This document shows positions 8,510 to 55,379 of a stretch of DNA of 64,000 nt, piece after piece. Position 1 is the stretch's first letter; each line of letters starts with the position of its first letter. Source of the stretch: Macrostomum lignano (taxonomy: Eukaryota); NCBI GenBank assembly GCA_002269645.1, contig NIVC01003385.1:1-64000 (forward strand), read 5' to 3'. The translations under genes and the position numbers were made by a program. The notes under the pieces were generated by a model that ran no database searches, had not been told where the DNA came from, and saw nothing but the letters and a program-made list of their open reading frames with translations.

Positions 8510-13131
<4,622 letters not shown>

Positions 13132-26560: not shown

Positions 26561-27636
26561 CGTGAGTGCCTTTACCACGCAGGCTACGGGAAGGAGAGGA
26601 GAGGGGAGAGGAGAGATCGGAGAGTGATAGAGACAAGGATGGAGACAGTGTTTCGAATTCGAAGAGTTGCTGATTTGATTTAATAGCCAGAGAAATTTGC
26701 TTGAGCTGCAGGATTTTCGAATGAAATAAAAACTACATTGCCCACTACGAGTAAAATGGACGCATTGCCAATCCAAACAGCATTGTAGACTGACAGCAGC
26801 CCACTGACGGATGTGTGTTGATCGTCAATATGCTAGAGTTTAAACGCTGCTGTGGACTCTGGCGTCGACCTGAAACTGCGATAGACTTGATCGGCTTAAA
26901 AAAAAGTCAATAAAAAGAAACTTCATGCTTGGATGCATTAGGTAGTCAAATAAATGTAAAATCAAACATATTAACAACGGGTTATTGACATTGCACACGC
27001 AACTCTCTACCAGAGCTCAGTTCCAGAGCAATTAAGATGGCTGTCAGTTTTCCAGCGTTGCCATCCAAAATATCGAAATAAAATGAATGCAGCAAAGTCG
27101 AGAGAGGCAGAAAGCATCGTCACCTGAATTTCCCAGACATCACTGCAGTGGAATCGCTAGCGACTTACGGACAGGAAAGGCAACGAACAACAGAGAAGGC
27201 AAGAATTAATGAGATGCATGATTTTCAGTTTAAAGCGTAATCATAAACAACTGTCTAAGGACTCTGCACTCATAATTTTGAGGTGTTTTTTGCACTTATC
27301 AATATCTCACCCTCTCTCCATCCGACTGGCAAGAGGGTTATCTATAACATAATCCACATACGTCAGCCGAACGTATATGTAGGTGAATATAAAAATACCC
27401 CTTTGTCAGTCGAAAAGTTGCCGGAAGTTGCCGCTCTCCAAGATACTTTTTCACAAAATTTTTCTCGAAAAAAGCACGCTTACTTGGTTAGAAATTCTGC
27501 AGTTTGAAATTGCTGATTCAGTGCTATCAAATTCAATGCTTCCTATCCCGTTAATGTGTTATGCGGTGATACAGTCAGTTCTATATATGAAGATAATATT
27601 GCAGAAACAATTATTTTAGACTCAAAGCATCGCCCA

Positions 27637-28353
27637 ATGCTTGCGCTGCTGCTGCTGCTGCTGAACTGCCAGCTGCTGCAGTCGCAGGCCCTGCCGTGTC
27701 CCGCACCGTTCACCATGCAGGCCAGTCTGTGCCTGTTCGTGAGCACAGCTCACAGCCACAGCTGGTGCTCAGCCAATCGGCAGTGTGCATCGATCGGAGG
27801 CGAGCTCGTTAACTCGAACAGCTCCATCCTGGCGCTGAATCGCAGCGGCATCAGCTCATCCTGCAGCTGCCAGCTGTGGCTCGGACTGAGCGACCTGGCC
27901 GATGAGAGAGGCAACAAGAGAGACGGCTGGCAGAGGGTCAACGGAAACGGCCTCGCTGACCCTCCCTCTGATCTGTTTTACGAATACGAGCCGTCAGGAT
28001 ACGACGAAAACTGCATTCGAATGGACCATCTGGGACTGCTCAGAGACGCCAACTGCAGCCATAACTATGGATTCGCTTGCGAGTACAAGAGCCCCTCTGC
28101 TTACCGGAAGCTCGCCCATTGGAAGAAGGTGTCGTTCAAGAGAGCCACCTACAACACCGAGTACTGCTTCACCGAAGTGCCGCATGTGAGCAGCGCTGTT
28201 GAGTGCGTTGCCGCCGCCATGAGTGACGCCAGCTGCAGACACGTGCTGTACAACAGCAAGCTGCGAGCCTGCCGCCTGCTGCTGTTCACCGACGCTCAGG
28301 TGGAGGCGGAGATCGAGACGAGCGCCGACTGGGTCAAGTTCCGCCTGCTCTGA
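27637..28353 (+). CDS. Secreted C-type lectin domain + PAN/apple domain protein (copy 1), intronless CDS
   Basis: Signal peptide MLALLLLLLNCQLLQSQA; CTLD motifs W..A..QC..IGGEL, LWLGLSD, EPSG, ENC, LRDANC, FACE; C-terminal SAVECVAAAMSDASCRHVLYNSKLRACRLL fits PAN/apple; TTATTTTAG acceptor just upstream of ATG. Confidence 0.88.
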   Translation: MLALLLLLLNCQLLQSQALPCPAPFTMQASLCLFVSTAHSHSWCSANRQCASIGGELVNSNSSILALNRSGISSSCSCQLWLGLSDLADERGNKRDGWQRVNGNGLADPPSDLFYEYEPSGYDENCIRMDHLGLLRDANCSHNYGFACEYKSPSAYRKLAHWKKVSFKRATYNTEYCFTEVPHVSSAVECVAAAMSDASCRHVLYNSKLRACRLLLFTDAQVEAEIETSADWVKFRLL

Positions 28354-41294: not shown

Positions 41295-44200
41295 CTGTAG
41301 CACTTAGAAAAGATAATTTGATACTTTCCAGGTTACTCGAAATTCCGTTTTTCTTTAAAATGATGCTACCGAAAATATACTGATAGTCAACATTCATATA
41401 CGAGCATAAGTTTTGTTTTCTGCAGTTCTTATTTCGATTAGTGCTTCCAATGCATTTGCCAATTGATGGGTTTCGACCTTTCGGCCCCCTTGTGAGGAAG
41501 CCTTCGGGCCTCAGGCCTCAGAAATAAATCAATTAGAGTCCTGGCCCCCCACTCCTGTCAGATGGTCAGCCCCATGGTAGCTTGATCGTGTGGCGAGCAG
41601 TCTAGGTCCTATAGCTAAGAGAGGGACAGCGAGAGACAAGCAGGGAGAATTTTGAAGGTAGAAATTAGCTAATCCGCAGACTAAGCTAACTCGCTGCCAC
41701 CAGCCCGTGCGTCCTGGCTCACCACACCGGGACTCTCGAAATCGGGCTTCCGACTAGAAGGGGCTTTGCATTTACCTGCCAACTAGTGTCTTTTTGCTGT
41801 CAATCTCGAAGTCATAGCCGATGATAAGGGACACTGCTGGGACTAGATCGCATTGGCCATGCAGGTACAGAGGGGACTTGTGCAGGGGATTCTTGCAGTG
41901 GCGAGTCTATGGGGTAGCTACATGTACTATTACATTGCTAAATACGAAGAATTGTACTTTTGGCCTTCAACGCGCCAACTAGCCTCTCATAGCGCTGATG
42001 ATAGGCTAACTCGAACTTCAGAGACCGCATGATTCATTACCCCAGCCGCTTGGCGAACCTAGAGTACACAAAGTACATCTCTGGCGCCGTTTTTGCACTA
42101 TTGGCAATTTCGCTAACTGATTTGATAGATTGATCGACTGAGAACCGCCTTGCCATTGGTCCACTGTGACCGGCGCCTACTAGCTTAGCTACTCATCTGA
42201 GCCATCGGCGAACAAAGAAACAAAACCGATAAAAATAACTGTTAGATTTAACCTTCTCCTTTGATCACTTCACACTTCAGATTGAATTGGAGTTTAGACT
42301 ACTAGCAGTATTATTGAATGACTTCTGCCTCAGTAACAGCACTACTGAACAAAATGAGCAAAAGTGTGCGCCTAATTCAGCTACCGAAACAGGGGACAGA
42401 TAGGGGATCACTCAATCAAGCAAGTCTAGGTAGCCTCTCACCCAACCAATCAGAAACTCAACAGCCGGAGACCAGGTAATCCACAGTGACCGAATCGGCT
42501 TGATGCTCTGCAGCTGTAGACTCGGGATGATGCTGTCAGGATCTTCGCTGTTAGCTAGCAGGTGATGCTCTTCACTTGATGTTCGCTGCTGATGACCGGG
42601 GGACTCGTCCTTGATGATGATGGGGGGGGGGAAGTCGCAATCCGGGGATCAAGAAACGACGGTCAGGCTCCGGGAGGTCTCTAGCTAGGCCAAGTTCCCA
42701 GGAGGTTGAGGTCCGAGCGGGCCAAAAACACCGGTTTAAATAGCCGCCAACTGGACCGCAGTTTGTTATAATGGAACACGTCGATTCTGATTGGCTGAGC
42801 CGTTTTGTTAAAATGAGCGTCGAATTTTCTGATTGGTTGGGCTTGTTGCTACCCAGAATCACGTGACCGAGAGATCCTATCAGTTCCCACAGGGTCGTAA
42901 AAAGATGACAGGTGCGGCCATAAATCACTCAAAATCGCAACAAAATGATTTATCACTTTTCGCGTAGGATTGACAGAAATTAATGAAAAAATATACATTA
43001 GAAAGCTCTTATTAAATAGAAAGTGAAGATAATGAAGAGAAATCGCTAATCGCTAATCCCAAAGTACTTTTAGGGGTAAAACGCATAGCTGTCAAAGCTG
43101 TCACACGCTTGAGTGAATCCGAACAATAGGCTCTGACCTCATAAATCTTGATGGCCTGTCAAAATGATGAGAAAAAAGCCACCGCCCGCATCCTCTCAGA
43201 CCATCTGGCGCCCGTCTCAACACTGAGTGAGGCGCAGGTGGCTGTCAGACCAGCTTCGAAAGCGATGATTTATGACCCAAAAAGCAATGCCTATGTTATT
43301 ATGACTACTAGTATGACCAAACATTATATCTAGTATAGATTCTATGACTCTTCGTAGAAAAAGGATAAAAATGCCCATTGCCCACTGTTAGTAGGCTAGC
43401 AAGTTTAGAGCCCATGTGCTAGCGCGGGGTTTGGAAAAAAGTGCGTCCTCATCACTACGTATCGTGCAGAAACTGCAGGGTTTTGGAGGTGAGGTGTGTG
43501 TCAGAGCCAATGCAAATTCAACGCCTATCTAAATGCACTAGAGCTCTTCTAATTGGTCCAGAGTCAATCTGTGAGATATGCATGTAACTCTCATGTAAAT
43601 CTAATTATACATGTAATCAGTGTACACTGTGTCGTACAGAAGCGAGTACAATATAGTACACATATATTAGCGCTTCGCCGTTGTTGTACGCAGAAGCGCG
43701 CCCACCCCGCGCAATGCAGCATTGGTGTACGCAGAATTAACTGTCCATATTAACTGTCCATATATACATCCAAAATTGGCAGAATTAGCGCGCGCCCACC
43801 CACCCCATAACTGTCCATATTACTTGTCCATAATACATCCAAAATTGGCTGAATTAGCGCGCGCCCACCCACCCCATAACTGTACGCGCAGAATTAGCAT
43901 CCAAGAAAATATCCTGTCGCAATTAATTGACGGCCCCCCGCGCGCGCGCATGATGAGTCAGCCAGCCGCTGTAAATCGCTGCTGTCCACACCTCTGCCCT
44001 GCGCGGCTCGCTATAGCTACCTGCAGCAGGGTTACGCAACAACCCGGTCGAGATACAAGGCTAAATTTATAGCCAGACACGTCATCAAGGTCTAAAAACA
44101 CTAACTTCTATGCATGAAATATTCTCGTTTAATAAGATGCCAGGTCAATTTTGTTCAGACAGCAAACTATAAATAAAGAAAATTCGGATTCTCGGCCGTT

Positions 44201-44563
44201 TTCTAAATTCACCAAGTTCAATTAAAAATCATGTGGAAAACGCAGTGTTTGACAAGCAATTTTGCTTGCCAAAGCATGAACTGCCAACAACTTGGAGCAA
44301 GGATTTCAACACGCCTCCAACGCCAGTACCGAAAAAAGGTACAAAATGTTCATTTTTCTGGAATCCTCGATAACGACAACTCCGTAAAAAGCTCGTTATC
44401 GTGTAATTAAAACAAAACTTATTGAGACTCTCGGGTATATAAGCACCAGCCCGGAGCATCTGCAAGCACCCGTACCTGCAAACTTTTCTCGGCTTCTCGG
44501 TAGTTTTCTAAGCTCAAATAACATCCCCACCACTCGTGTGGACAACGCAGTGTTTGACAAGAA

Positions 44564-45061
44564 ATGAGTTGGATTTCCAGAGACTACCTTCTATTATCGA
44601 ACGAGGAAAAAGACGAATATGAGACCTTGAAAAAATCTGCTGACTGGTTGTGCATTTGCCACAGCAAACCGATTTCTGAGCGATTAGTCACCTTCAATGC
44701 CAAGGTCGAGGAAATTGATCAAGGTCCCTACGACAGCCAAGACTACGCAGCAGCCAGGATAAATGAGCAACTACGGGACAAAATGAGGTTCAAAGCTGAT
44801 TTAGCACGAATGGAGAGATTACTGGCTCCGATACTAAGTGAGGAGCATCGCCAAAAATACGTTTTCGGAACCATCAAGATCTGTATAATCCGTCGTGGGA
44901 GGAGCAACAAAAGATTCGGAATTTTTGGCTGCCAAAGCACAAGAGAACCAGGCCGCGAAAGCATGAACTACCATCAACTTGGAGCAAGGATTTTAACACA
45001 CCTCCAACGCCAGCACCCGAAAATAGGAACAAAAGGTTCATTTTTCTGGAATCCTCGATAA
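44564..45061 (+). CDS. Hypothetical protein inside the Polinton-like element (3' half possibly frameshifted)
   Basis: 165-aa ORF after a TATA-containing module; no recognised motif. Confidence 0.45.
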   Translation: MSWISRDYLLLSNEEKDEYETLKKSADWLCICHSKPISERLVTFNAKVEEIDQGPYDSQDYAAARINEQLRDKMRFKADLARMERLLAPILSEEHRQKYVFGTIKICIIRRGRSNKRFGIFGCQSTREPGRESMNYHQLGARILTHLQRQHPKIGTKGSFFWNPR

Positions 45062-45192
45062 CGACAACACCGTAAAAAGCTCGTTATCGTGTAATTAAAA
45101 CAAAACTTATTGAGACTCTCGGGTATATAAGCACCAGCCCGGAGCATCTGCAAGCTCCCGTACCTGCAAATTTTTCTAAACAGACAAGAGAC

Positions 45193-45903
45193 ATGGAGAC
45201 AGTGCAAGACTTCAACGGCGTAAAGCGAGAGCTGCTGGCACTCAAACCGCGAGGCCCGAGCTTCAACGGGGTTGAAACGTTTGACATTGAATATGACGAA
45301 CAGGGACCTCTCTACTTGGCCAATGCGGTCCCTGTTTTGATCGTCAAGGACGTGCGTACTGACAACGAAGGTCGCGAATTCATCATCATTGCACAAAAAC
45401 ACATTGAGAGCTGCATACCCTACACTTTCAACACTGTGGCGGAGCACCTTTCCAGTGAAAGTCTAGCTCTTCTGGGCTACAACCCAGCGTTTGGAGGCGA
45501 CAGTGCAGCGTTTGGGCTGGCTCGCGATTTTAAAATGTACGACCAAAACGGACTGCCTGTAGAGGATTATAAAAACAAGAGCGGCTATTACAGGATTCTG
45601 TTTACTCTCGACACGGCCGTGATTCGAGACGCTGTTTTGACCGCAATGCCAAAAATTCAACAGCTACAGTTTGTCGAAGAAGCCAAACAGGCATTCGACC
45701 GTTGCTATTGGACGCCACCTCCAAAAATCAAGGTAGGCTCCAAGAAAGTAAGCAAGAAAGCAAAGAAACCACCAAAGCTTGTCAAGGAGAAGCAGCCAAA
45801 GGTGCCTAAAAATCAGGCCAGAAAGCGACAGCATCAATCGAAAGTAGTAGCAGCCAACGAATCAAAGAAGCGGCCGAAAGCCCCCAAGAAGGATACGAAG
45901 TAA
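45193..45903 (+). CDS. Putative single-stranded DNA-binding (OB-fold-like) protein with Lys-rich tail
   Basis: 236-aa ORF; YRILFTLDTAVIRD..LTAMPKIQQLQF resembles the last strands of phage/NCLDV-type SSB folds (pattern recall, no search run). Confidence 0.45.
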   Translation: METVQDFNGVKRELLALKPRGPSFNGVETFDIEYDEQGPLYLANAVPVLIVKDVRTDNEGREFIIIAQKHIESCIPYTFNTVAEHLSSESLALLGYNPAFGGDSAAFGLARDFKMYDQNGLPVEDYKNKSGYYRILFTLDTAVIRDAVLTAMPKIQQLQFVEEAKQAFDRCYWTPPPKIKVGSKKVSKKAKKPPKLVKEKQPKVPKNQARKRQHQSKVVAANESKKRPKAPKKDTK

Positions 45904-48296
45904 AGAAAACTGCCGAAAAATCTACTTGCAGAACGTCGAGTGCGTGAATCGAGTGTTTTGCGCGAAATGGAGCCGCATGCCTGACTTGGACTGGGCGAGC
46001 GCACGGACATTTCGCAGACCAAGAGCTCTTATCAATTTGAGGATAGGAAAGTGTACAATAAACTTTTGTCAGCGTTCTTTGTCTGCAATTGTATTCGGTT
46101 GTCGCTCAGTCAACCAAGTTTTGCGTCTTTTTCCTCAATGTAAACCAATTTCTGTTGTTGTTAACTTACCGCGCTGAAGTAGACAGATGGCCAAATTTTT
46201 TCCAAATTGCATACTCAGGGTCCCAATGGGTGAAGTGGGAGTGCGAAGTTTTCAATGGAATAGTAATAAAGTCTCCATTTCGCAATGCTAAATGTTTATT
46301 ATGCGGAAAGAATGGCCGCCTTGTTTTCCTTGGTATACGAAACTTTAAAGAGCTCTGTCAAATGTACGATCATGTGACTAGCGTTTTGTATGTCTAATCC
46401 ATATAGCTATTGCGTAGCTTTACTGTTTAACCACTGTAAATCTGCAATGAAAATGCGCATGGTCTCTAAAATTCTGACCGCTTGGATTTTTTAAAACTGT
46501 CAAAAACTTTTGATTTATTGCCCGGCGGCAGCAGCAATTTTATCGCCCCACCCCTAAGCAACAAAACCCCAACTCGGCACGTTCCACCACGCAGCAACAA
46601 AAGTAATGTGGGGTTGATTGACCCTGTTTTCGATTTTTAACTGTCAAAAATATTTGATTGATGACCCTCTGATAACACAGATCCTGCCGTAGCAGCGATT
46701 GTAAAATTTAAGAAGTTCCACAATCGGTACGTGTCTCCATTGTTTGTTTTGTACCCTTCTCGACACCTAGCAACATCTCCTCACAGGAGCTTTTGGATTT
46801 TTAATGCTGTCACAAATGTTGTGTAACTTTATTGTCAATTACCACTGCACTGAAATTGGTGTACAATCGTAATGCTGCTATGTAACTTGTCTATAAATAT
46901 ATTGTGCATAAATTGCGATGCACTGCAACCAACATCTTTGTGCTAAACAAAATGACAAACGGAATCTCCAGACTATGTTCTTGTCGCGGCGAGCTCGCAG
47001 AGCTCGCCAAAGCCCGTCCCACTCTTCGGCGGGCAATTATTCGAGGTGCAGGCAAGTGAAGAGTTGATTCGGGAGGTGATCAGTCCCCCGAAAACTCCCA
47101 CTTCCAGACACTTAAGCCTGGGAACAAAAATGTAGTGCACTTACTGTTGCGGGCTCCTCTTCTTCGTCGGGCAGGTTCTCCGAGCTCGTTCCTTGTTTCT
47201 TCTTCTTTGTTGCGCGCGTGTTTAGAACTTGCTTCTTCCAATCTTCTTCTCCGGAGGAATCTTCTTGAAGTCTAGAATCGGCCGAAAGTGAGAGCGTAAC
47301 AATAAAATCGACGTCGCAGTATTTCCTCGAGTGCAAATCAACATAGGCCTTAAGCTCAGTAATCAATATCAACGATGCGCCCTTGTAATAAAATCAACTT
47401 TCTGTAATAATCACGAGGACCTCCAAGAAGGGCGTCTTCTTCTAGATCTAACGGAATCGGAGTCGTGTGCTCCTATCGGTTAATCTAGGATAACCAAAAT
47501 CAATCAATCGATAATCCTCTAAGGGTATCGGAATCGGTCCGCAGATCCTATCCAATCCCTTAGGAAAATGGGAGGCCTCAAACTAAATAGACTCAATAAA
47601 ATCAACTGAACGGTAACGGCCGGCAATAATAATCGCTCTCAATAATCAAAATAACGAAGTCTCAAACAAAGCTTTCCAATTGGTGTTTATCTCTTCCTCA
47701 GAGATATAGCCTCGTTGGCTGCTCTTGCAAAGCCCAAGATCTTTGGAGGCTGCTCCGAGTCTGAGATTTTAGCTCGGATTTTGCGTTTGTATTTATACAC
47801 AATTTTTCGGCCTTGAGTCGACCTTGAGCTCAAAACCGGTTTTTTGATGAGTTCACGAAAGGAATTTTATTATTTGACAGGTGAGGTTTTTGAATAGAAA
47901 GGGGTGAGACTTGGGTCACATTCAGGTTAACATTTACCATATTTGGAAGTTCTAAAAATAGATGTCGAGAACCGGTTTTTTTCGAACAATAGCATAGCCA
48001 CTCGCTGTTTGCGTGATATGACTGGTATTACTAAAAATAGAGTATGACACATAGCTATTCTTAAATTTGTGTTCATAATTTTATGTTACTACTTTACACA
48101 GTAGGCTACACAGTAGGCTACTGTGTTTGGAGATCTCTACACAAGGAACTGATTCATTGTCTCTGTGAATTGAGTCACAACGGACTCCGGGGGAAATATT
48201 GACCTTTCTCCGAAACAGTATCTGCGATTAAAGCGATACAGAAGATCGCAGCGTGAATTGGCAGACACAAAATTGTCTATAAATAGGAAGAAGAAT

Positions 48297-48398
48297 ATGC
48301 TTCTCTCGAATCCTCAAGTCGGTGGTTTTCTACCCATCCTTGCATCTGTTGCTGCACCGCTAATATCAAGCCTGTTTGGTGGACTACTCGGTCGCTAA
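48297..48398 (+). CDS. 33-aa adenovirus pX-like / membrane-active core peptide (MLLSNPQVGGFLPILASVAAPLISSLFGGLLGR)
   Basis: Below ORF-track cutoff; TATAAATA at 48278; xGG/F protease-type site followed by hydrophobic amphipathic helix as in adenoviral pX; stop TAA one base before next ATG. Confidence 0.7.
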   Translation: MLLSNPQVGGFLPILASVAAPLISSLFGGLLGR

Positions 48399-48399
48399 A

Positions 48400-49041
48400 A
48401 TGAATAAATACGTTGTTGTGCCAGAAGAAGAATTTAATAGACTGAGTCAAGGCGCACCCCGAGAAATTGCATCTAAAACAGAATATGAAAAACTCATTGA
48501 ATACAACACTCAACTCCAAAATAAACTAATTCAGATCAAGCAAAAGAAGAGTAATCGTTTTCCTGAACGACAACAACGAAATTGGGACATGTTGACAGAA
48601 AGATACCCAAATTTGGAGCTCAACAAGTCGTGGGAAATTGTATTTGATGGAAAAACCTGGCCAGGAAGCAATACTTTCGATCTACTGAAGGAAGATGAAA
48701 GGCGCGACCGCCCAAGCCCAAAATATAGTACCGCTTTTTGGGCCCTGGCTGAAGAGGCAGATATTGCAAAAGCTCTACTAGGACGACACCAACAAGAAGA
48801 AGTCAGCGTGAAAAAAGAAATCGGCACGGATCCGGATCGAGACGATTTTTTAGTCGAGCAAGCAATTGGAACTAGTGATTTCTACAACGACTTCCACAAA
48901 GACCGAGCCAGTGGCCTGAATGAAGTTAAAAAATTTGAAGATCGTGGCAGCGATGCCTACAGGCATGCTTCATACCAACATCGCGAACCAAAGAGGCGGC
49001 AGAAACCAGCAGTAAAATACGAGACGTTAAAAAAACTATAA
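48400..49041 (+). CDS. Conserved Polinton-type hypothetical protein
   Basis: MNKYVVVPEEEF.. and WEIVFDGKTWPGSNTFDLL..P..FW..L resemble an uncharacterised ORF commonly found next to Polinton integrases. Confidence 0.65.
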   Translation: MNKYVVVPEEEFNRLSQGAPREIASKTEYEKLIEYNTQLQNKLIQIKQKKSNRFPERQQRNWDMLTERYPNLELNKSWEIVFDGKTWPGSNTFDLLKEDERRDRPSPKYSTAFWALAEEADIAKALLGRHQQEEVSVKKEIGTDPDRDDFLVEQAIGTSDFYNDFHKDRASGLNEVKKFEDRGSDAYRHASYQHREPKRRQKPAVKYETLKKL

Positions 49042-49178
49042 ATAGAAATCATTTTCATGATTTATAATCTGTTTTTGGATCATGGGTGCTGCAGCTTTAA
49101 CTTCAAAGCTTTGCTCAGACAAACCGTCTGTGGAGTTCAAGTGTAATTACTCATGCTGTGCATCGACTCTAGTTGCGA

Positions 49179-50244
49179 ATGAGGGTGAAAACCGCTCTTC
49201 GGAGAGTGTACGAACAGGGGGATGCCGCTTTTACAAATGCTGCCCGTGTATATCAGGAGGCCAAACGGCTGGCCTCCTCCCTGACGAGACGCCAAACCGA
49301 CGAATGGCTGAAGACCCAATCGAGCTTCACCCGGCACAAGAGGGTTAAAAGAAAATTCCGAACCGGAAAAGTAATGTCAGGAGGCTTCATGGAAACTGTG
49401 CAAGCGGATTTGATGGACATGTCACGATACGAACAATGGAATGATGGTCATCGATATTCTGGTTGCAATTGACGTGCTTAGTAAATTGGCTTTTTGTCAG
49501 CCAATAAAATTGAAAAGCGACACTCCAAAGGCTTTTGAAAGCATGATCATAGACTTCCCTATTAAGCCTTTATATCTACGCGTTGATCGAGGTACCGAGT
49601 TTTAAAACAATCGCATGCAGAACTTACTGAAAGCCAACAGTATCAAAATGTACAGCACAAACTCTGTATACAAGGCAAATATGGCTGAAAGGTTGATTAG
49701 AACTCTCCGAAAACGTTTAGCTCGCTACTTTAAGCACAAAAACACGTGGCGCTGGATCGACTATTTGCCAATATTGGTTAAAAGTTACAACAACACAGTA
49801 CACTCTACTATTGACATGAAACCTTCGAGTGTCGGTCTGCACAACCAAAAAGAATTGTGGGAAAAGCTCTACCAGGATCCTGAATATGATGAACCAGTTT
49901 ACCAAAAAGGGGACTTTGTCAGAATTTCAAAATCTCGTCGAGCCTTTGACAAGGAAGCATACGATATGTACAGCGAAGAAGTTTACGTTGTGTCTCAAGT
50001 ATGCCCGGGACCACCTCATTTTTATCGCATTTCCGACCTATCTGGAGAACAAATCGAGGGTCGATTCTACTATAATGAACTTTCAAAGACGGTTCGACCG
50101 GACCGCTTTGTTATAGACAAAATTCTGCGTCGCAATGTCGTCATCAATGGTGTCGCTCATCATTTCGTTAGTTGGCGCGGCTATCCCGAGTCGTTCAATG
50201 CATTTGTACCAGTTGAGGAAGTTATAAATATAAGACAAGGATGA
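49179..50244 (+). pseudogene. Retroviral-type (rve) DDE integrase with C-terminal chromodomain; frameshift near 49455 and TAA at 49603-49605
   Basis: QADLMDM (D), ILVAIDVLSK, VDRGTEF (D), MAERLIRTL (E); chromodomain FVIDKILRR..HFVSWRGYPESFNAFVP; reading needs a +1 shift at CGATATTCTG and passes an in-frame stop. Confidence 0.92.
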
Positions 50245-50278
50245 ACACACGCACAGTCGAAACGTGTGGTATATTACA

Positions 50279-51442
50279 ATGCATCTTTTCCTACCTAGCA
50301 ATGCGTGCGTTGAGCACTATCCTGAGAATAATTCGGCACATTATGACATTAATTTGCCCGACACCCTCCACTTTCCGAATCATGAAGTCTGCATCGAACG
50401 GATCTACTTTTGTAAAGAATTCAAAACCGTCCCCGATAATCGAATGGTTGATGTCCTGACCAACACTCCCGAGGATGAAGTGATCGATATTGAGGTTAGA
50501 GAAAAACCCGCCTCCACGTATAAGCAATTTGCGTCGGTTTCTCTCCCCGCGGGGCTATCAACAGCTAACGAAGTGGTTGATGCGATCATTGCCGCTCTAA
50601 AATATGAGCAATACAATAATGCGATGATTTGCATTGAGCGTTCACAGGAAGGCCAAATTTCGATTGTGAACAAATCATGGTATGGTGCGAACATTAGGCT
50701 GTCCAGTAATGTGCGCAGCATGTTTAAAAAGGTCGATGACGCTGGAAATAAATCAAATATCGAAGGAACGAGTTTTTTATTAAACCCAAGAATTTCTTTA
50801 GTATTCGCTATAGAATTGGAATCCTCCTCCTCCATAGAGAGTCCCATGACTCTAACGTTTGAAAAAAGTGTCTGGCCTAGTAGAACGTCACTGCGGATTG
50901 CTAAAGGATTCTACCGCACGCCCGATGGGCTCTTAAATTATGTTAATGGAGCGCTTTGGAGCGTCGTTTCAAAGCTCCCAATAAGTCCAGCAACGAGAGT
51001 GGATGCATTCAGCTACAACCCTTTTCTGAACCGGTGTGAGTACAAACCCATTGAAAACATTTTATTTGAAATTGGTGAGCTTGCTGCCATTCTCGGCTTT
51101 CGCGAAGATGATTCTTTTAATGAAACTCCAAAGACCGCTAAACGACCAATCGATTTAACAAATGGTGTACAAACTATGTACATCTATTCAAACATTGTCG
51201 ACTCTGCCATTGTTGGAGACGTCAAAGTCGCCCTGCTTGGTGCAATTCCTTTGAATGAAAAGGTATACGGTGAACGAGAGTACTACGAGTTTGTCAATCT
51301 ATCATACTTACCGTTGGTGAAGCACCCATTTACTCGTAAAACCATTGAGGTGCAAATCTGTGACGATATGGGCAAGCTAATGGATCGGATTCTTCTTGGT
51401 AAAACTGTTTTATCGATCAACATTCGTGAAATTAAGCTATAA
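50279..51442 (+). CDS. Minor capsid protein (penton-like single jelly-roll)
   Basis: LFLPSN..YPENNSAHYDINLP N-terminus and MYIYSNIVDSAIVGDVKVALL..YLPL..IEVQICDDMG C-terminus typical of Polinton mCP; open frame from 50264. Confidence 0.85.
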   Translation: MHLFLPSNACVEHYPENNSAHYDINLPDTLHFPNHEVCIERIYFCKEFKTVPDNRMVDVLTNTPEDEVIDIEVREKPASTYKQFASVSLPAGLSTANEVVDAIIAALKYEQYNNAMICIERSQEGQISIVNKSWYGANIRLSSNVRSMFKKVDDAGNKSNIEGTSFLLNPRISLVFAIELESSSSIESPMTLTFEKSVWPSRTSLRIAKGFYRTPDGLLNYVNGALWSVVSKLPISPATRVDAFSYNPFLNRCEYKPIENILFEIGELAAILGFREDDSFNETPKTAKRPIDLTNGVQTMYIYSNIVDSAIVGDVKVALLGAIPLNEKVYGEREYYEFVNLSYLPLVKHPFTRKTIEVQICDDMGKLMDRILLGKTVLSINIREIKL

Positions 51443-51486
51443 ATAAAGAAGTTTTCACGAATTAAAGACCGCAATTCATCAGCAAT

Positions 51487-51834
51487 ATGCCTTCAATCTT
51501 GATCGGAGGAGCACTGTTTGGCAGCATTGCCCGATTTGCCCTGCCAATTTTAAAGAGTTTTGGCAAAAATATTCTTCGCCACGGAACACGAGCCCTAGCT
51601 ACAACAGTTAGCGACACACTCGATCAAGGCGGGAACTTGAAAGAAGCAGCATTGCGCAACTCTGTCCGGGCAGCTAAAGATGCTTTCAAAGACACAGTCA
51701 CACAACGAGGTAGCGGCGGTGGTCAAAGGCGTAGAAAGAAGACTAACAAAAAAACTAGAAAAAGACTCCAACATTCTGATATTTTTGACTCTATAAATAA
51801 AAAAACCCGCGTCAATAATCGATCTGCCTATTAG
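51487..51834 (+). CDS. Basic core protein (pVII-like)
   Basis: LIGG/A and QRGSG protease-type motifs, amphipathic FGSIARFALPILK, Arg/Lys-rich tail ending DIFD. Confidence 0.75.
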   Translation: MPSILIGGALFGSIARFALPILKSFGKNILRHGTRALATTVSDTLDQGGNLKEAALRNSVRAAKDAFKDTVTQRGSGGGQRRRKKTNKKTRKRLQHSDIFDSINKKTRVNNRSAY

Positions 51835-51865
51835 AGCACCACTCTAAGCCGCTGTTGAAAGAAAA

Positions 51866-53149
51866 ATGACTGAGTGCCTGTGTACAAAGTCGGAATTCGA
51901 GCTATTTGCTCCTCGAGCACACAAAATTGCTGCAATTAGCGCCACCACTGAAGAAGTTCACCCTGTTGCTAGTGTTGAAAATGCCAGCGTGGTCGAATTT
52001 AGGATTGTTGGTGGTGAGACGTTTATCGATCTTAACGACATTGACCTCGAGATTAAGGCCCGCGTTAGGCAATCTAATGGCACAAATCTTGCTGCTGATT
52101 CGAATGTTGCGCCGGTCAATTACGTCCTTGAAAGCATGTTTAAAAACGTCACGTTGACAATCAACGGGACCCACGTAGAGTCGAGCAATAACAACCACGC
52201 TTACAAGGCCTATATTCGCACGTGTTTGAATTACGGACACGATTCAAAAACCAACCAACTGAGAATGATGGGCTACGCAAAGGACGCTGGAGGACAAATG
52301 GCTGTGGTTGGAAATCCTGGTTTTGTAGCCCGCAAGGCGATGGCGGCAAACTCACGCACCTTTCACCTTTATGGACCTCTTAGTTTAGACTTTTTTGTTA
52401 CCAACGACCGAATGCTGTTGCCATACACTGATATGGTAATTACGCTAACTATGCACAATTCCGGCTTCGTTTTGGAAAACCACGCGGACGGGGTTGAGGC
52501 GCGGCTGGTACTCGAGAGTGCCAGACTACATGTGCGCCGCGTCAAGGCAAACCCCCAATTGGCATTGGAGATTGAAGAACAACTAGGCAAACAGAATGCA
52601 ATCTATCCGATTGAGCGACTTGTTGTGCACAATACTTCAGTGGCTGGCGGTGTTCGGGACATGTCAATCAACAATATATTTCCTGAACAAAAGCCTAAAC
52701 TGGTGATTGTTGGCATGGTAAACAGCGGCGCGTACAACGGTGTGGCTACACATAACCCGTTTAATTTTGAGCCATTTGGAGCCGACAGTGTGGCTCTGTA
52801 TAAGGACGGAGTCAGTCTGTGTGGACAACCGTTTACTCCTCGATTCGGTGTTCATAACTATGCTCGCGAGTATGCTATGTTACTAAAAAGCCTAGGAAAA
52901 ATGAATCGGGACCTGGATATTGACGTATCATATTCCGACTATGGAGCTGGCTACTGCTTCTTCGCCTGGAATCTCATGCCCGACATGGAGCTGGGTGGGC
53001 ATAGCATGCCTCGCGAGCAAGGGAATCTGACGCTACAAATAAAGTTTTCTGCTGCCTTAACCGCAGGAATCAACGTGTTGGTGTTTGGCTACTTCGACAG
53101 TACTGTGCAAATCACTCGCGGTCGTCAGGTTATTCTAGACTACGTGTAG
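51866..53149 (+). CDS. Major capsid protein (double jelly-roll, Polinton/adintovirus hexon-like)
   Basis: 427-aa intact ORF; CTKSEFELF, VEFRIVG..FIDL, YKAYIRTCLNY, LHVRRVK, YPIER, PKLVIVG, NPFNF, GYCFFAWNLMPD, GNLTLQIKF motifs of Polinton MCP. Confidence 0.93.
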   Translation: MTECLCTKSEFELFAPRAHKIAAISATTEEVHPVASVENASVVEFRIVGGETFIDLNDIDLEIKARVRQSNGTNLAADSNVAPVNYVLESMFKNVTLTINGTHVESSNNNHAYKAYIRTCLNYGHDSKTNQLRMMGYAKDAGGQMAVVGNPGFVARKAMAANSRTFHLYGPLSLDFFVTNDRMLLPYTDMVITLTMHNSGFVLENHADGVEARLVLESARLHVRRVKANPQLALEIEEQLGKQNAIYPIERLVVHNTSVAGGVRDMSINNIFPEQKPKLVIVGMVNSGAYNGVATHNPFNFEPFGADSVALYKDGVSLCGQPFTPRFGVHNYAREYAMLLKSLGKMNRDLDIDVSYSDYGAGYCFFAWNLMPDMELGGHSMPREQGNLTLQIKFSAALTAGINVLVFGYFDSTVQITRGRQVILDYV

Positions 53150-53205
53150 AAACAAACAACTCTTTTTTATTCCCAAATAACGGCCATACGAGTATTCATG
53201 CCGAT

Positions 53206-53361
53206 ATGAATAGTCTAGATATATTAGAACGTCTAATACTACCTGTCCCTGTTCGAGTAACACCAGTTGACAGGATTCCGCAGCCTGTTTATCCTGCAAT
53301 GACACCCACCTCTGACACCCACCTCACCTCCAAAACCCTGCAGTTTCTGCACGATACGTAG
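53206..53361 (+). pseudogene. N-terminal stub of probable adenain-like cysteine protease fused to right TIR sequence
   Basis: MNSLDILERL..VRVTPVDRIPQPVYPA resembles Polinton protease N-termini (MNTxQI..L..GVxPxDxLP..PA); the frame then runs into the TIR, no His/Cys catalytic motifs. Confidence 0.55.
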
Positions 53362-55379
53362 TCTCATCACAATGATGGTCACAACTGCATAATCATTAAC
53401 TGTTTGCTAATCGTTAACTACGAGCTATAATTTATAGCTTGTCAAAATTTAACGCATTTTTTCGCATTTAACCCATTATTGTTACAACCTAAACAAACCA
53501 AACGAGAGCTAATTTTTCAAGTGACTGTGTAGAATAGAATTTAATATAATATTTTTATGTATATTTTGAACTTGGCAGTTGCGAAAACATATGAATTTGA
53601 TGACACATAGGCACAGGAATTCAGGAAATGTTAGGTCAATTGAAACAAGCGAAGTTATACGGGCTTATAACTTTAGACGAATCCTATGAGAGAGAATTTT
53701 GCTCTAGCCTCAGCAACCCCTAACTCCGGCTTCGACAACTTTGTCGATGGTCCATCCAAGTGGGTCCTCTGGTTGCTTAATGGATCGATCAACCAGAGAA
53801 TAGGGAGAGAGGAAGTGCAAGTCAGCGCACATGTAAAGAGCATTTTGGAGCGACAGAGATCAGAAACTGAGAAACTTTGGCAATAAACAGAGTCAGTTAT
53901 TTACAGTCACGCGGGGCGGCAAAGTTTACACTGCAAAATCTATGCGACGGCTACTATACTCATGTAAAATCAATCGATTACCCGAACCTAATCGACTGCA
54001 ACGTCGGAGTGGATGTACAGCAGAGCCTATACTCTATACATGTAGTAGATGCTTATGCCTTAGGAAGCATTTCTCTGCCTTTCCATCGATCACTCAAACA
54101 GTATGCGGCATTGTGGTAGTTGAGTGGCGGTGCGCCGGTGTCCATGGAGCAACCAGAAGCGCCAGCAGTTGCATCAGGGGCGCCAGCAGTCGCAGCAGAG
54201 ACGCCCGGCATCACAGATTTCGTGCAAAACAGTTTTACTACCCCCTACTGTCTAGTCTTTGGTGGGCGCTGAAAATCTTTATGGGGTACGGGCCAGTGGC
54301 GGGATGGGTGTCGCGCATGTAGGAGATGTCAGGCTTTGGGGACCTCGGCGTCAGTGGGGGCGCCATAAACCCGGTAAAAATTTTCTTTAAACATTTTTAG
54401 TTAGGGATTTACGGAAAAATTACCAATTCATAACCGAAATTGGGCGGGGGGGGGGCGGCCCCAAATCGATCCGCCCTTGGCGATCACCTTATATGGACTT
54501 CTAAGTTCTAAATCAAGCAAGTAGGTGCACGTGCACTGTCCGAGGTCACCCGACGACAACCGGCTAGCCGGGCCAAAAGCTTACAAAATCATCGGGCTAA
54601 CCGGCAGGAAAGCGCGCTCTCGAGCTCTCGCTTCTCCCGGCTAGACGGGCCCAAAGCGCGCTCCCATACAATCAAATGGGAGTGTATCAATTGAAAGCTT
54701 TTAACGGGTGTTTAATAACAATTTGCAGTAGAAAAATCGACGTTTGTTAATATTAATTCGCTTGTATGTAATTTGAAAACAAAATTTACAGGAATGAGCT
54801 AGGGTTCCTGTGTTCAACGTTCAACAAAAGCTTTTAAGGCATATTTGTTGTGCTAGTGCTACTGTGCATTGCTGTGCTGGCCTATGCACTAGACTAAACA
54901 AGTGAAGGCTTCGTGTACAAGATAAATGAAAGGAGCTTTTCTTAAATTTCTTGTGCATTATTATGTGATTGCTTAAGTAATTTTGTTCTATAGTTTAAAG
55001 CCTGTCACGTGTCAGTTAATTAATAATACAGGCATTTGAAATATAAATGTAGGTTACAGCAGCTTACTGTAACTTATAAGCTGCTTTTATTCAATTATAA
55101 AAAGGCTTCAATTCAATTAAATTCTATTTATTTAGCTATAGCCCTATGTATGTAGGAAAGCCTATTGAGCACTAAGCCTTGGCCTAGCTTATTGACTTGG
55201 TCTTAGGCCTAATGAATAGATTTAGCTAACTTACTAGATAAAAGCCTTAAAATTTTTGTTTTTTTCTATCTATCTACTTTATGTATACCAATAGGCCTAG
55301 ACTAAATAACAAACTATAAAACTAAGCCTACAATATTTTATATCAAATGCCTGATGTTTGACTTATTTTCCTTTCCTTA

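Follow-up and report, generated by a model that had tools for sequence, protein, structure and literature searches.

A stretch of 64,000 nucleotides from the flatworm Macrostomum lignano (contig NIVC01003385.1 of assembly GCA_002269645.1, positions 1 to 64,000, hereafter the window) contains a virus-like mobile element at 43454-53362. The element is bounded by terminal inverted repeats (TIRs), 43454-43506 and 53310-53362, in which 52 of 53 bases match, and CTCATC lies directly outside both ends as a target site duplication (TSD). It possesses the gene run that an earlier note on this DNA had listed: a pX-like peptide, a conserved open reading frame (ORF), an integrase, a penton, a core protein, and a major capsid protein (MCP). 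As that note also stated, the ATPase and the polymerase, pPolB, are lacking. No frame of the element contains a Walker-A motif, and tblastn with 14 pPolB ORFs from the same genome found no pPolB remnant in it. The element is probably a damaged copy of segment A of a two-segment Polinton. Its polymerase is then carried on separate elements, here called B, and both segments occur in two apparently co-diverged lineages (A1 and B1, A2 and B2).

The MCP has a predicted double jelly roll (DJR) fold (predicted local distance difference test, pLDDT, 88.8) that matches the MCPs of Paramecium bursaria chlorella virus 1 (PBCV-1), iridoviruses, and Sputnik (E about 1e-16). It is related to F54H12.2-like proteins, which are presumably Polinton MCPs. 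The integrase of a sister copy belongs to the rve family (PF00665, E 2.5e-8). The penton candidate is weakly and locally similar (28%) to its counterpart in a monopartite Polinton on contig C4948 and has no match in Pfam. The name pVII-like for the basic core-like protein (51487..51834) is an assumed one. Pfam gave no significant match for 10 window ORFs, and no window ORF matched a helicase, archaeo-eukaryotic primase (AEP), or PolA family that could substitute as replicase. The 236-amino-acid (aa) ORF had no match in Pfam or in an atlas search, and the atlas search gave no usable match for the 213-aa ORF. A sequence search of the PDB returned nothing for the MCP or the protease, and no relative was found in IMG/VR.

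The genome was searched with the DNA of the window element, and the best 14 of 897 candidates were scored and 13 extended. These sister copies are about 10.1 kb long, have TIRs of about 600 bp, and carry protease and ATPase genes. The ATPase follows the MCP in 12 of them; an insertion breaks up the remaining one. A pattern of the A1 TIR gave 73 matches, 27 of them paired, with a median span of 10,151 bp and a maximum of 14,363 bp. Of 23 two-ended A1 copies, 22 have the ATPase; only the window copy is without it. The ATPase and protease of the family show what are presumably Walker A/B and H-D-Q-C motifs, respectively, and match those of C4948 at 34-40%; the protease also has a weak match to Peptidase_C48 (E 0.06). 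No pPolB was found in 29 stretches with A1 TIRs or in 31 A elements. There is no further large ORF in the A copies, and three small ORFs remain without annotation.

The second lineage, A2, was found by its MCP, which is 87-88% identical to that of A1. Ten A2 loci have the gene order of A1 and no pPolB, and three further loci agreed; protease and ATPase are conserved here as well. In the MCP tree, A1, A2, and three MCPs from public assemblies (77-79% identical, available without genomic context) form a fully supported clade apart from C4948. A2 also has a Fic-domain ORF (L189:5130-5906, E 7e-14), which A1 is without.

The loss of protease and ATPase was seen only in the window and in contig C3715. 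The two have the same insertion, deletion junction, and right flank (99.5% over 1673 bp) and are a single locus assembled twice. Copies with this junction and other TSDs, which the earlier note had looked to, were thus not found. The loss is therefore a one-off event, and the A family does not depend on borrowed packaging enzymes. pPolB has long been missing from the whole family, and the polymerase must therefore come in trans. The deletion derivative proposed in the earlier note thus holds for the protease and ATPase and fails for pPolB. Of the satellite with a helper, its other proposal, the polymerase in trans survives; the packaging enzymes are not borrowed and the partner is no full Polinton.

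The first 31 bases of the window element also start elements with a different inner TIR. Many of these B elements are 9.5-10.8 kb long, have 6-bp TSDs, and contain pPolB (PF03175, E 2.5e-27) as their sole large gene. This pPolB is 95-98% identical to UniRef entries labelled Macrostomum lignano. No MCP, penton, integrase, ATPase, or protease was found in any B element of the census described below. A second lineage, B2, was identified by a pPolB search (about 65% identical to B1); at six loci pPolB is present and the A genes are absent from all. A and B have almost no common sequence beyond their ends, and the inner TIR of B2 resembles that of A1. Median sizes are 10.2 and 10.5 kb for A, 9.5 kb for B2, and 10.4 kb for B1 including copies with insertions.

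Some B elements have a PC4-like ORF on the strand opposite to pPolB, with a weak Foldseek match (E 2e-3). This putative single-stranded DNA (ssDNA)-binding ORF is present in 11 of 11 two-ended B2 elements and 3 of 11 B1 elements (L211:9499-10000; L238:3090-3881). In addition, pPolB appears to be spliced. In B1, GTAAGT donors immediately follow the codons of the LNS and DTDS motifs; in B2, one follows the LNS codon, and the B1 and B2 donor places match. The apparent introns would be spliceosomal (loci L209-L210 on contig C1300, L203-L204, and L219-L220).

A census was made of 100 stretches chosen by TIR, MCP, or pPolB matches, 90 of them two-ended (3 redundant loci included) and 10 missing an end. 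The 90 comprise 31 A elements, 22 B elements, and 37 elements with none of the queried genes (C elements); none carries both modules. A perfect 6-bp TSD was found in 82 of the 90, with distinct flanks (21 of 22 B and 34 of 37 C elements). At least 62 MCP matches (identity at least 59%; best 98 of 538 candidates scored) and 111 pPolB positions (last-exon search, 147 of 147 scored) have only three contigs in common, and the nearest pair is 46.8 kb apart. On C4948, the positive control from a distant family, a stretch of 13.3 kb holds pPolB (1454 aa), ATPase, integrase, MCP, and protease. A division of essential genes among complementary molecules, a mark of segmented viruses, is thus found here. 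Further pPolB families are present genome-wide (974 candidates, best 91 scored), as are further MCP families at 31-33% identity; C4948, the one checked, is monopartite. At C356/C1588 and C996 (L060, L061, L099-L100) the flanks are inverted too and there is no TSD, which indicates a foldback duplication or an assembly artefact.

A second mark of segmented viruses, terminal sequences that are shared and lineage-specific, was also found. A1 and B1 start with ACTAC[G/A]TA and A2 and B2 with ACTACTA. The B terminus nearest to an A1 27-mer differs at a median of 3.5 positions in B1 and 14 in B2; for A2 the medians are 3 in B2 and 13 in B1. Terminus patterns matched 238 sites (pool 1) and 191 sites (pool 2), with the first 100 of each listed, and the controls matched 0. 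The terminal 27 bp vary at 18 of 27 positions. Mean pairwise differences over bases 1-27 are 7.3 in A1 (21 copies) and 10.1 in A2 (8 copies); over bases 28-54 they are 0.1 and 0.0. In 65 pool-1 ends the 27-mer takes 55 different forms; of 153 column pairs, 103 fail the four-gamete test. Left and right ends are identical in 69 of 87 elements. Chimeras that combine TIR types of different segments were found on C150 (second element), C19, C89, C356, C816, and C1705. Because the terminal 27-mers are hypervariable and recombined and the TIRs chimeric, A, B, and C may replicate together. The terminal 31 bp are likely to serve as integrase end and as putative replication origin. Some ends carry repeated ACT triplets, which slide-back priming would fit. 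A terminal hairpin (flip/flop) as the source of the variability was rejected, as three termini had no common fold (z -2.0 to +0.8).

Natural copies of A1 and A2 have a nonsynonymous divergence (dN) well below the synonymous divergence (dS) in all 10 genes, with dS 1.3-2.4 or saturated. The dN/dS pairs are 0.067/1.85 for the MCP, 0.128/1.28 for the integrase, and 0.081/1.48 for the ATPase. For pPolB, B1 and B2 differ with dN 0.29-0.30 and dS 1.8-1.9. Both halves of the system thus show purifying selection, which for virion genes is taken as a sign of particle spread (PMC8097293). The A1/A2 and B1/B2 splits appear to be of the same depth, roughly and from single copy pairs. There are two A/B pairs with similar dS, near saturation, and two lineages are too few for tree congruence. 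Within lineages, the MCP is 96-99.8% and pPolB 92.5-98% identical, so the insertions are recent. Depending on the gene tested, the reading frame is open in 7 to 16 of 21 A1 copies.

The C elements have interiors that form families of their own and are mostly not pieces of A or B. Several are near-perfect whole-length palindromes of about 9.3 kb with cognate termini and 6-bp TSDs (L229 on C657, L104 on C301, L244 on C436, L245, and L247); there is one family per pool, and no genes were found in them. Snap-back defective viral genomes and non-autonomous elements of the miniature inverted-repeat transposable element (MITE) kind are comparable. Like those, C elements keep cognate ends and TSDs, lack the queried genes, and include many near-perfect palindromes; unlike those, their interiors are mostly foreign to A and B. 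C as a third gene-bearing segment is unsupported, with no queried genes and no convincing C1-C2 protein match, and small or spliced genes are possible. C558 and C538 were set aside as TIR shells filled by retrotransposons. The shell on C558 (L248) has B2-type TIRs, a TSD, and two tandem copies of a Gypsy-like long terminal repeat (LTR) retrotransposon, as nested insertion or as cargo.

The features of the window copy are collected in Table 1. The earlier note had called its virion genes intact; the copy as a whole is not. The integrase is broken by a frameshift near 49455 and a stop at 49603-49605, a dispersed repeat has been inserted, the right TIR is truncated, and the protease is reduced to a 31-codon stump. 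That stump, at 53206-53298, abuts the right end; the remainder is deleted. The pX-like peptide does exist as an ORF and corresponds to the 3' part of a longer ORF (118 aa) interrupted by the 1085-bp repeat; no link between this repeat and a full LTR element was made. The copy in the window is a fossil that probably lost 1.7 kb on its right-hand side once it had been inserted. Its left flank (42500-43453) is itself a high-copy repeat, and the window outside the element is rich in satellites and microsatellites. A host ORF at 27517-28353 presumably resembles a C-type lectin, and an exon at 10836-11480 presumably resembles SH3/SH2 domains.

Table 1. Positions of the element's features in the window.
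Feature	Position	Strand	Remarks
Left TSD	43448..43453	none	CTCATC
Terminal 31 bp (ACTAC...TTTT)	43454..43484	+	Bases 1-27 hypervariable among copies; common to polymerase-only elements
Left TIR	43454..43997	+	About 550-600 bp in full copies
Internal direct repeat	44268..45177 (44268-44489 / 44955-45177)	+	Present in sister copies too
ORF, no assigned function	44564..45061	+	165 aa here; 170-178 aa in sisters; 62% to A2
236-aa ORF	45193..45903	+	Lysine-rich tail; 70% to A2
Piece of ~380 bp	46438..46819	-	About 80% like non-coding sequence upstream of B1 pPolB; most A1 copies without
118-aa ORF ('pX-like' gene), 5' part	46952..47056	+	ORF has amphipathic C-terminus
1085-bp dispersed repeat	47057..48141	none	TG...CA ends; 4-bp TSD CAAG; solo-LTR-like; interrupts 118-aa ORF
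118-aa ORF, 3' part	48146..48398	+	The pX-like peptide of the earlier note
213-aa conserved ORF, no assigned function	48400..49041	+	52% to A2
rve integrase with chromodomain	49179..50244	+	Broken here; 355 aa in sisters
Minor capsid (penton) protein, probable	50279..51442	+	387 aa, open
Basic core-like protein	51487..51834	+	115 aa; short deletion relative to 122 aa in sisters
MCP	51866..53149	+	
Adenain-like protease, first 31 codons	53206..53298	+	Rest, ATPase, and inner right TIR (~1.7 kb) deleted
Right TIR stump	53310..53362	-	53 bp; remnant of ~600-bp TIR
Right TSD	53363..53368	none	CTCATC

In Polintons, protein-primed initiation relies on a terminal protein that is part of pPolB itself (PMC11161782). 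In a two-segment Polinton, the polymerase of B would initiate in trans at any cognate segment's ACTAC terminus and copy the segment by strand displacement, together with the PC4-like single-strand binding protein. B and C elements have TSDs and no integrase, so the integrase of A would insert A, B, and the gene-less C elements alike. The capsid, ATPase, and protease of A would serve to package segments of 9-10.5 kb, perhaps with a single segment in each particle. Segments that replicate together would exchange their terminal 27 bp and TIRs through template switching or heteroduplex repair, and the C palindromes would be snap-back defective or satellite genomes. In this scheme B would complement A, and particles would form. 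Clearly less certain than the split itself, and put forward tentatively, is that this is a multipartite DJR double-stranded DNA virus of an animal. Its replication and virion segments would be packaged separately in a capsid of about 10-kb capacity, both would integrate into the germ line, and there would be two co-diverged species with defective palindromic genomes and a shuffled 27-bp terminal origin cassette.

It is possible, although rather unlikely, that A and B are two separate elements that cooperate. B would then be a pPolB replicon with no capsid, used by A, a virus that has no polymerase; the integrase of A would insert B, and B would be no packaged obligate segment. A and B do share almost nothing beyond their ends, and accessory genes vary among B copies. 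Mobile replicase modules have also been proposed for this virus group in a 2026 preprint whose available text has no segmented genome (10.64898/2026.10.13.758929). However, A and B complement each other exactly, have pair-specific termini, have diverged to matching extents, and are similar in size, all of which argues for long co-transmission. If purifying selection on the virion genes implies particle spread, B would need to travel too.

Several points weigh against the two-segment Polinton, and some of them would suit a different origin, in which a full-length parent, missing from the assembly, still acts as the real helper and A and B arose from it by complementary deletions. The searches cover one genome with a redundant assembly and are lower bounds; MCP candidates were scored, and termini listed, only in part, so a rare or unassembled monopartite parent is possible. 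About 380 bp in the sub-lineage of the window are about 80% like the region upstream of B1 pPolB, and this piece may be the scar of a once-joined parent or a later exchange. TIR types are also common across segments, as in B2 and A1. The matched depth of the two splits is rough because a dS near 1.8 is close to saturation, and a few TSD calls lie in low-complexity sequence or allow one extra ACT triplet. Caenorhabditis elegans has 10 loci with pPolB and TIRs and no integrase, reported while tracing Polinton remnants (10.1101/2024.01.15.575659). A missing parent would nevertheless require the same split twice (A1/B1 and A2/B2), yet 0 of 90 elements keep both modules, and the longest TIR pairs checked (14-18 kb) hold insertions or duplications, never both modules. 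Such a parent is thus more doubtful still than a pair of cooperating elements.

There is very little probability that the element is a satellite whose sole contribution is capsid, with polymerase, ATPase, and protease provided by a complete helper Polinton. The window copy would suit this, with no pPolB or ATPase and a stump of protease, and complete Polintons are present in the genome. It is largely refuted by the ATPase in nearly all A1 copies and by the protease and ATPase conserved in A2; in addition, the complete Polinton examined, C4948, has an MCP only 30% identical to that of A, and no ACTAC terminus in the examined stretch. Least probable is that the split or the right-end deletion is an assembly artefact: the assembly is redundant, and no public-run contig among those listed bridges the junction 53297/53310, where two runs continue into the protease, but perfect TSDs with distinct flanks in 82 of 90 elements and a junction present on two contigs stand against it, reads entering the protease are expected from sister copies, and an artefact at this junction alone would leave the two-segment Polinton untouched.

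The system shares with Polintons or Mavericks (adintoviruses, Polintoviricetes) the DJR MCP, chromodomain rve integrase, Ulp1/adenain-like protease, ATPase, pPolB, long TIRs, and 6-bp TSD (PMC8097293, PMC11296320). It differs in having pPolB on one TIR-bounded element and the virion/integrase module on another. The ends here are 5'-ACTAC...GTAGT-3', the reverse of the 5'-(AGT)2//(ACT)2-3' motif, and pPolB appears to be spliced, unlike the intronless ORFs of intact vertebrate Mavericks (PMC8097293). Gene by gene this is a Polinton, yet no single element has the pPolB plus integrase of the definition (PMC11296320).

A DJR capsid, and segments that all integrate with TSDs, set the system apart from bidnaviruses and Drosophila Vesanto virus, which are ssDNA viruses and parvovirid-derived. 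Those viruses have a non-DJR capsid and are not known to carry an integrase. They are alike in being segmented animal DNA viruses with a Polinton-derived pPolB and matching termini (PMC8502044, PMC8363768, PMC11161782). Polinton-like viruses (PLVs) and Tlr1 have a capsid and no pPolB, as A does, and transpovirons have a replicase and no capsid, as B does (PMC11161782). PLVs and Tlr1 encode a substitute replicase and transpovirons rely on giant viruses, whereas no replicase was found in A and its partner B has cognate ends. Yeast linear killer plasmids form no particles, unlike the particle life proposed here. They are cytoplasmic and not known to integrate, with a pPolB on each. Their pairs are similar in that two linear replicons are present and one aids the other (PMC13348850).

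No bipartite Polinton, and no description in Macrostomum, was found in the literature searched; Repbase, most subscription journals, and supplements lay outside this scope. In anole, no non-autonomous Polintons were found (PMC3014272). Published surveys filter for all five core genes within 20 kb (PMC10748475) or for pPolB and integrase within 20 kb (10.1101/2024.01.15.575659). Because they demand co-location, a split Polinton would be missed or filed as debris. If the two-segment Polinton is real, segmented genomes have arisen within the adenovirus/Polinton lineage, with about 200 integrated copies (429 termini) left behind in a laboratory flatworm. The origin of segmented genomes, segment ratios, and the behaviour of defective genomes would then become testable, as would origin recognition by a protein-primed polymerase where most of the first 27 positions vary. 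It would also offer a route for replicase turnover across the virus group.

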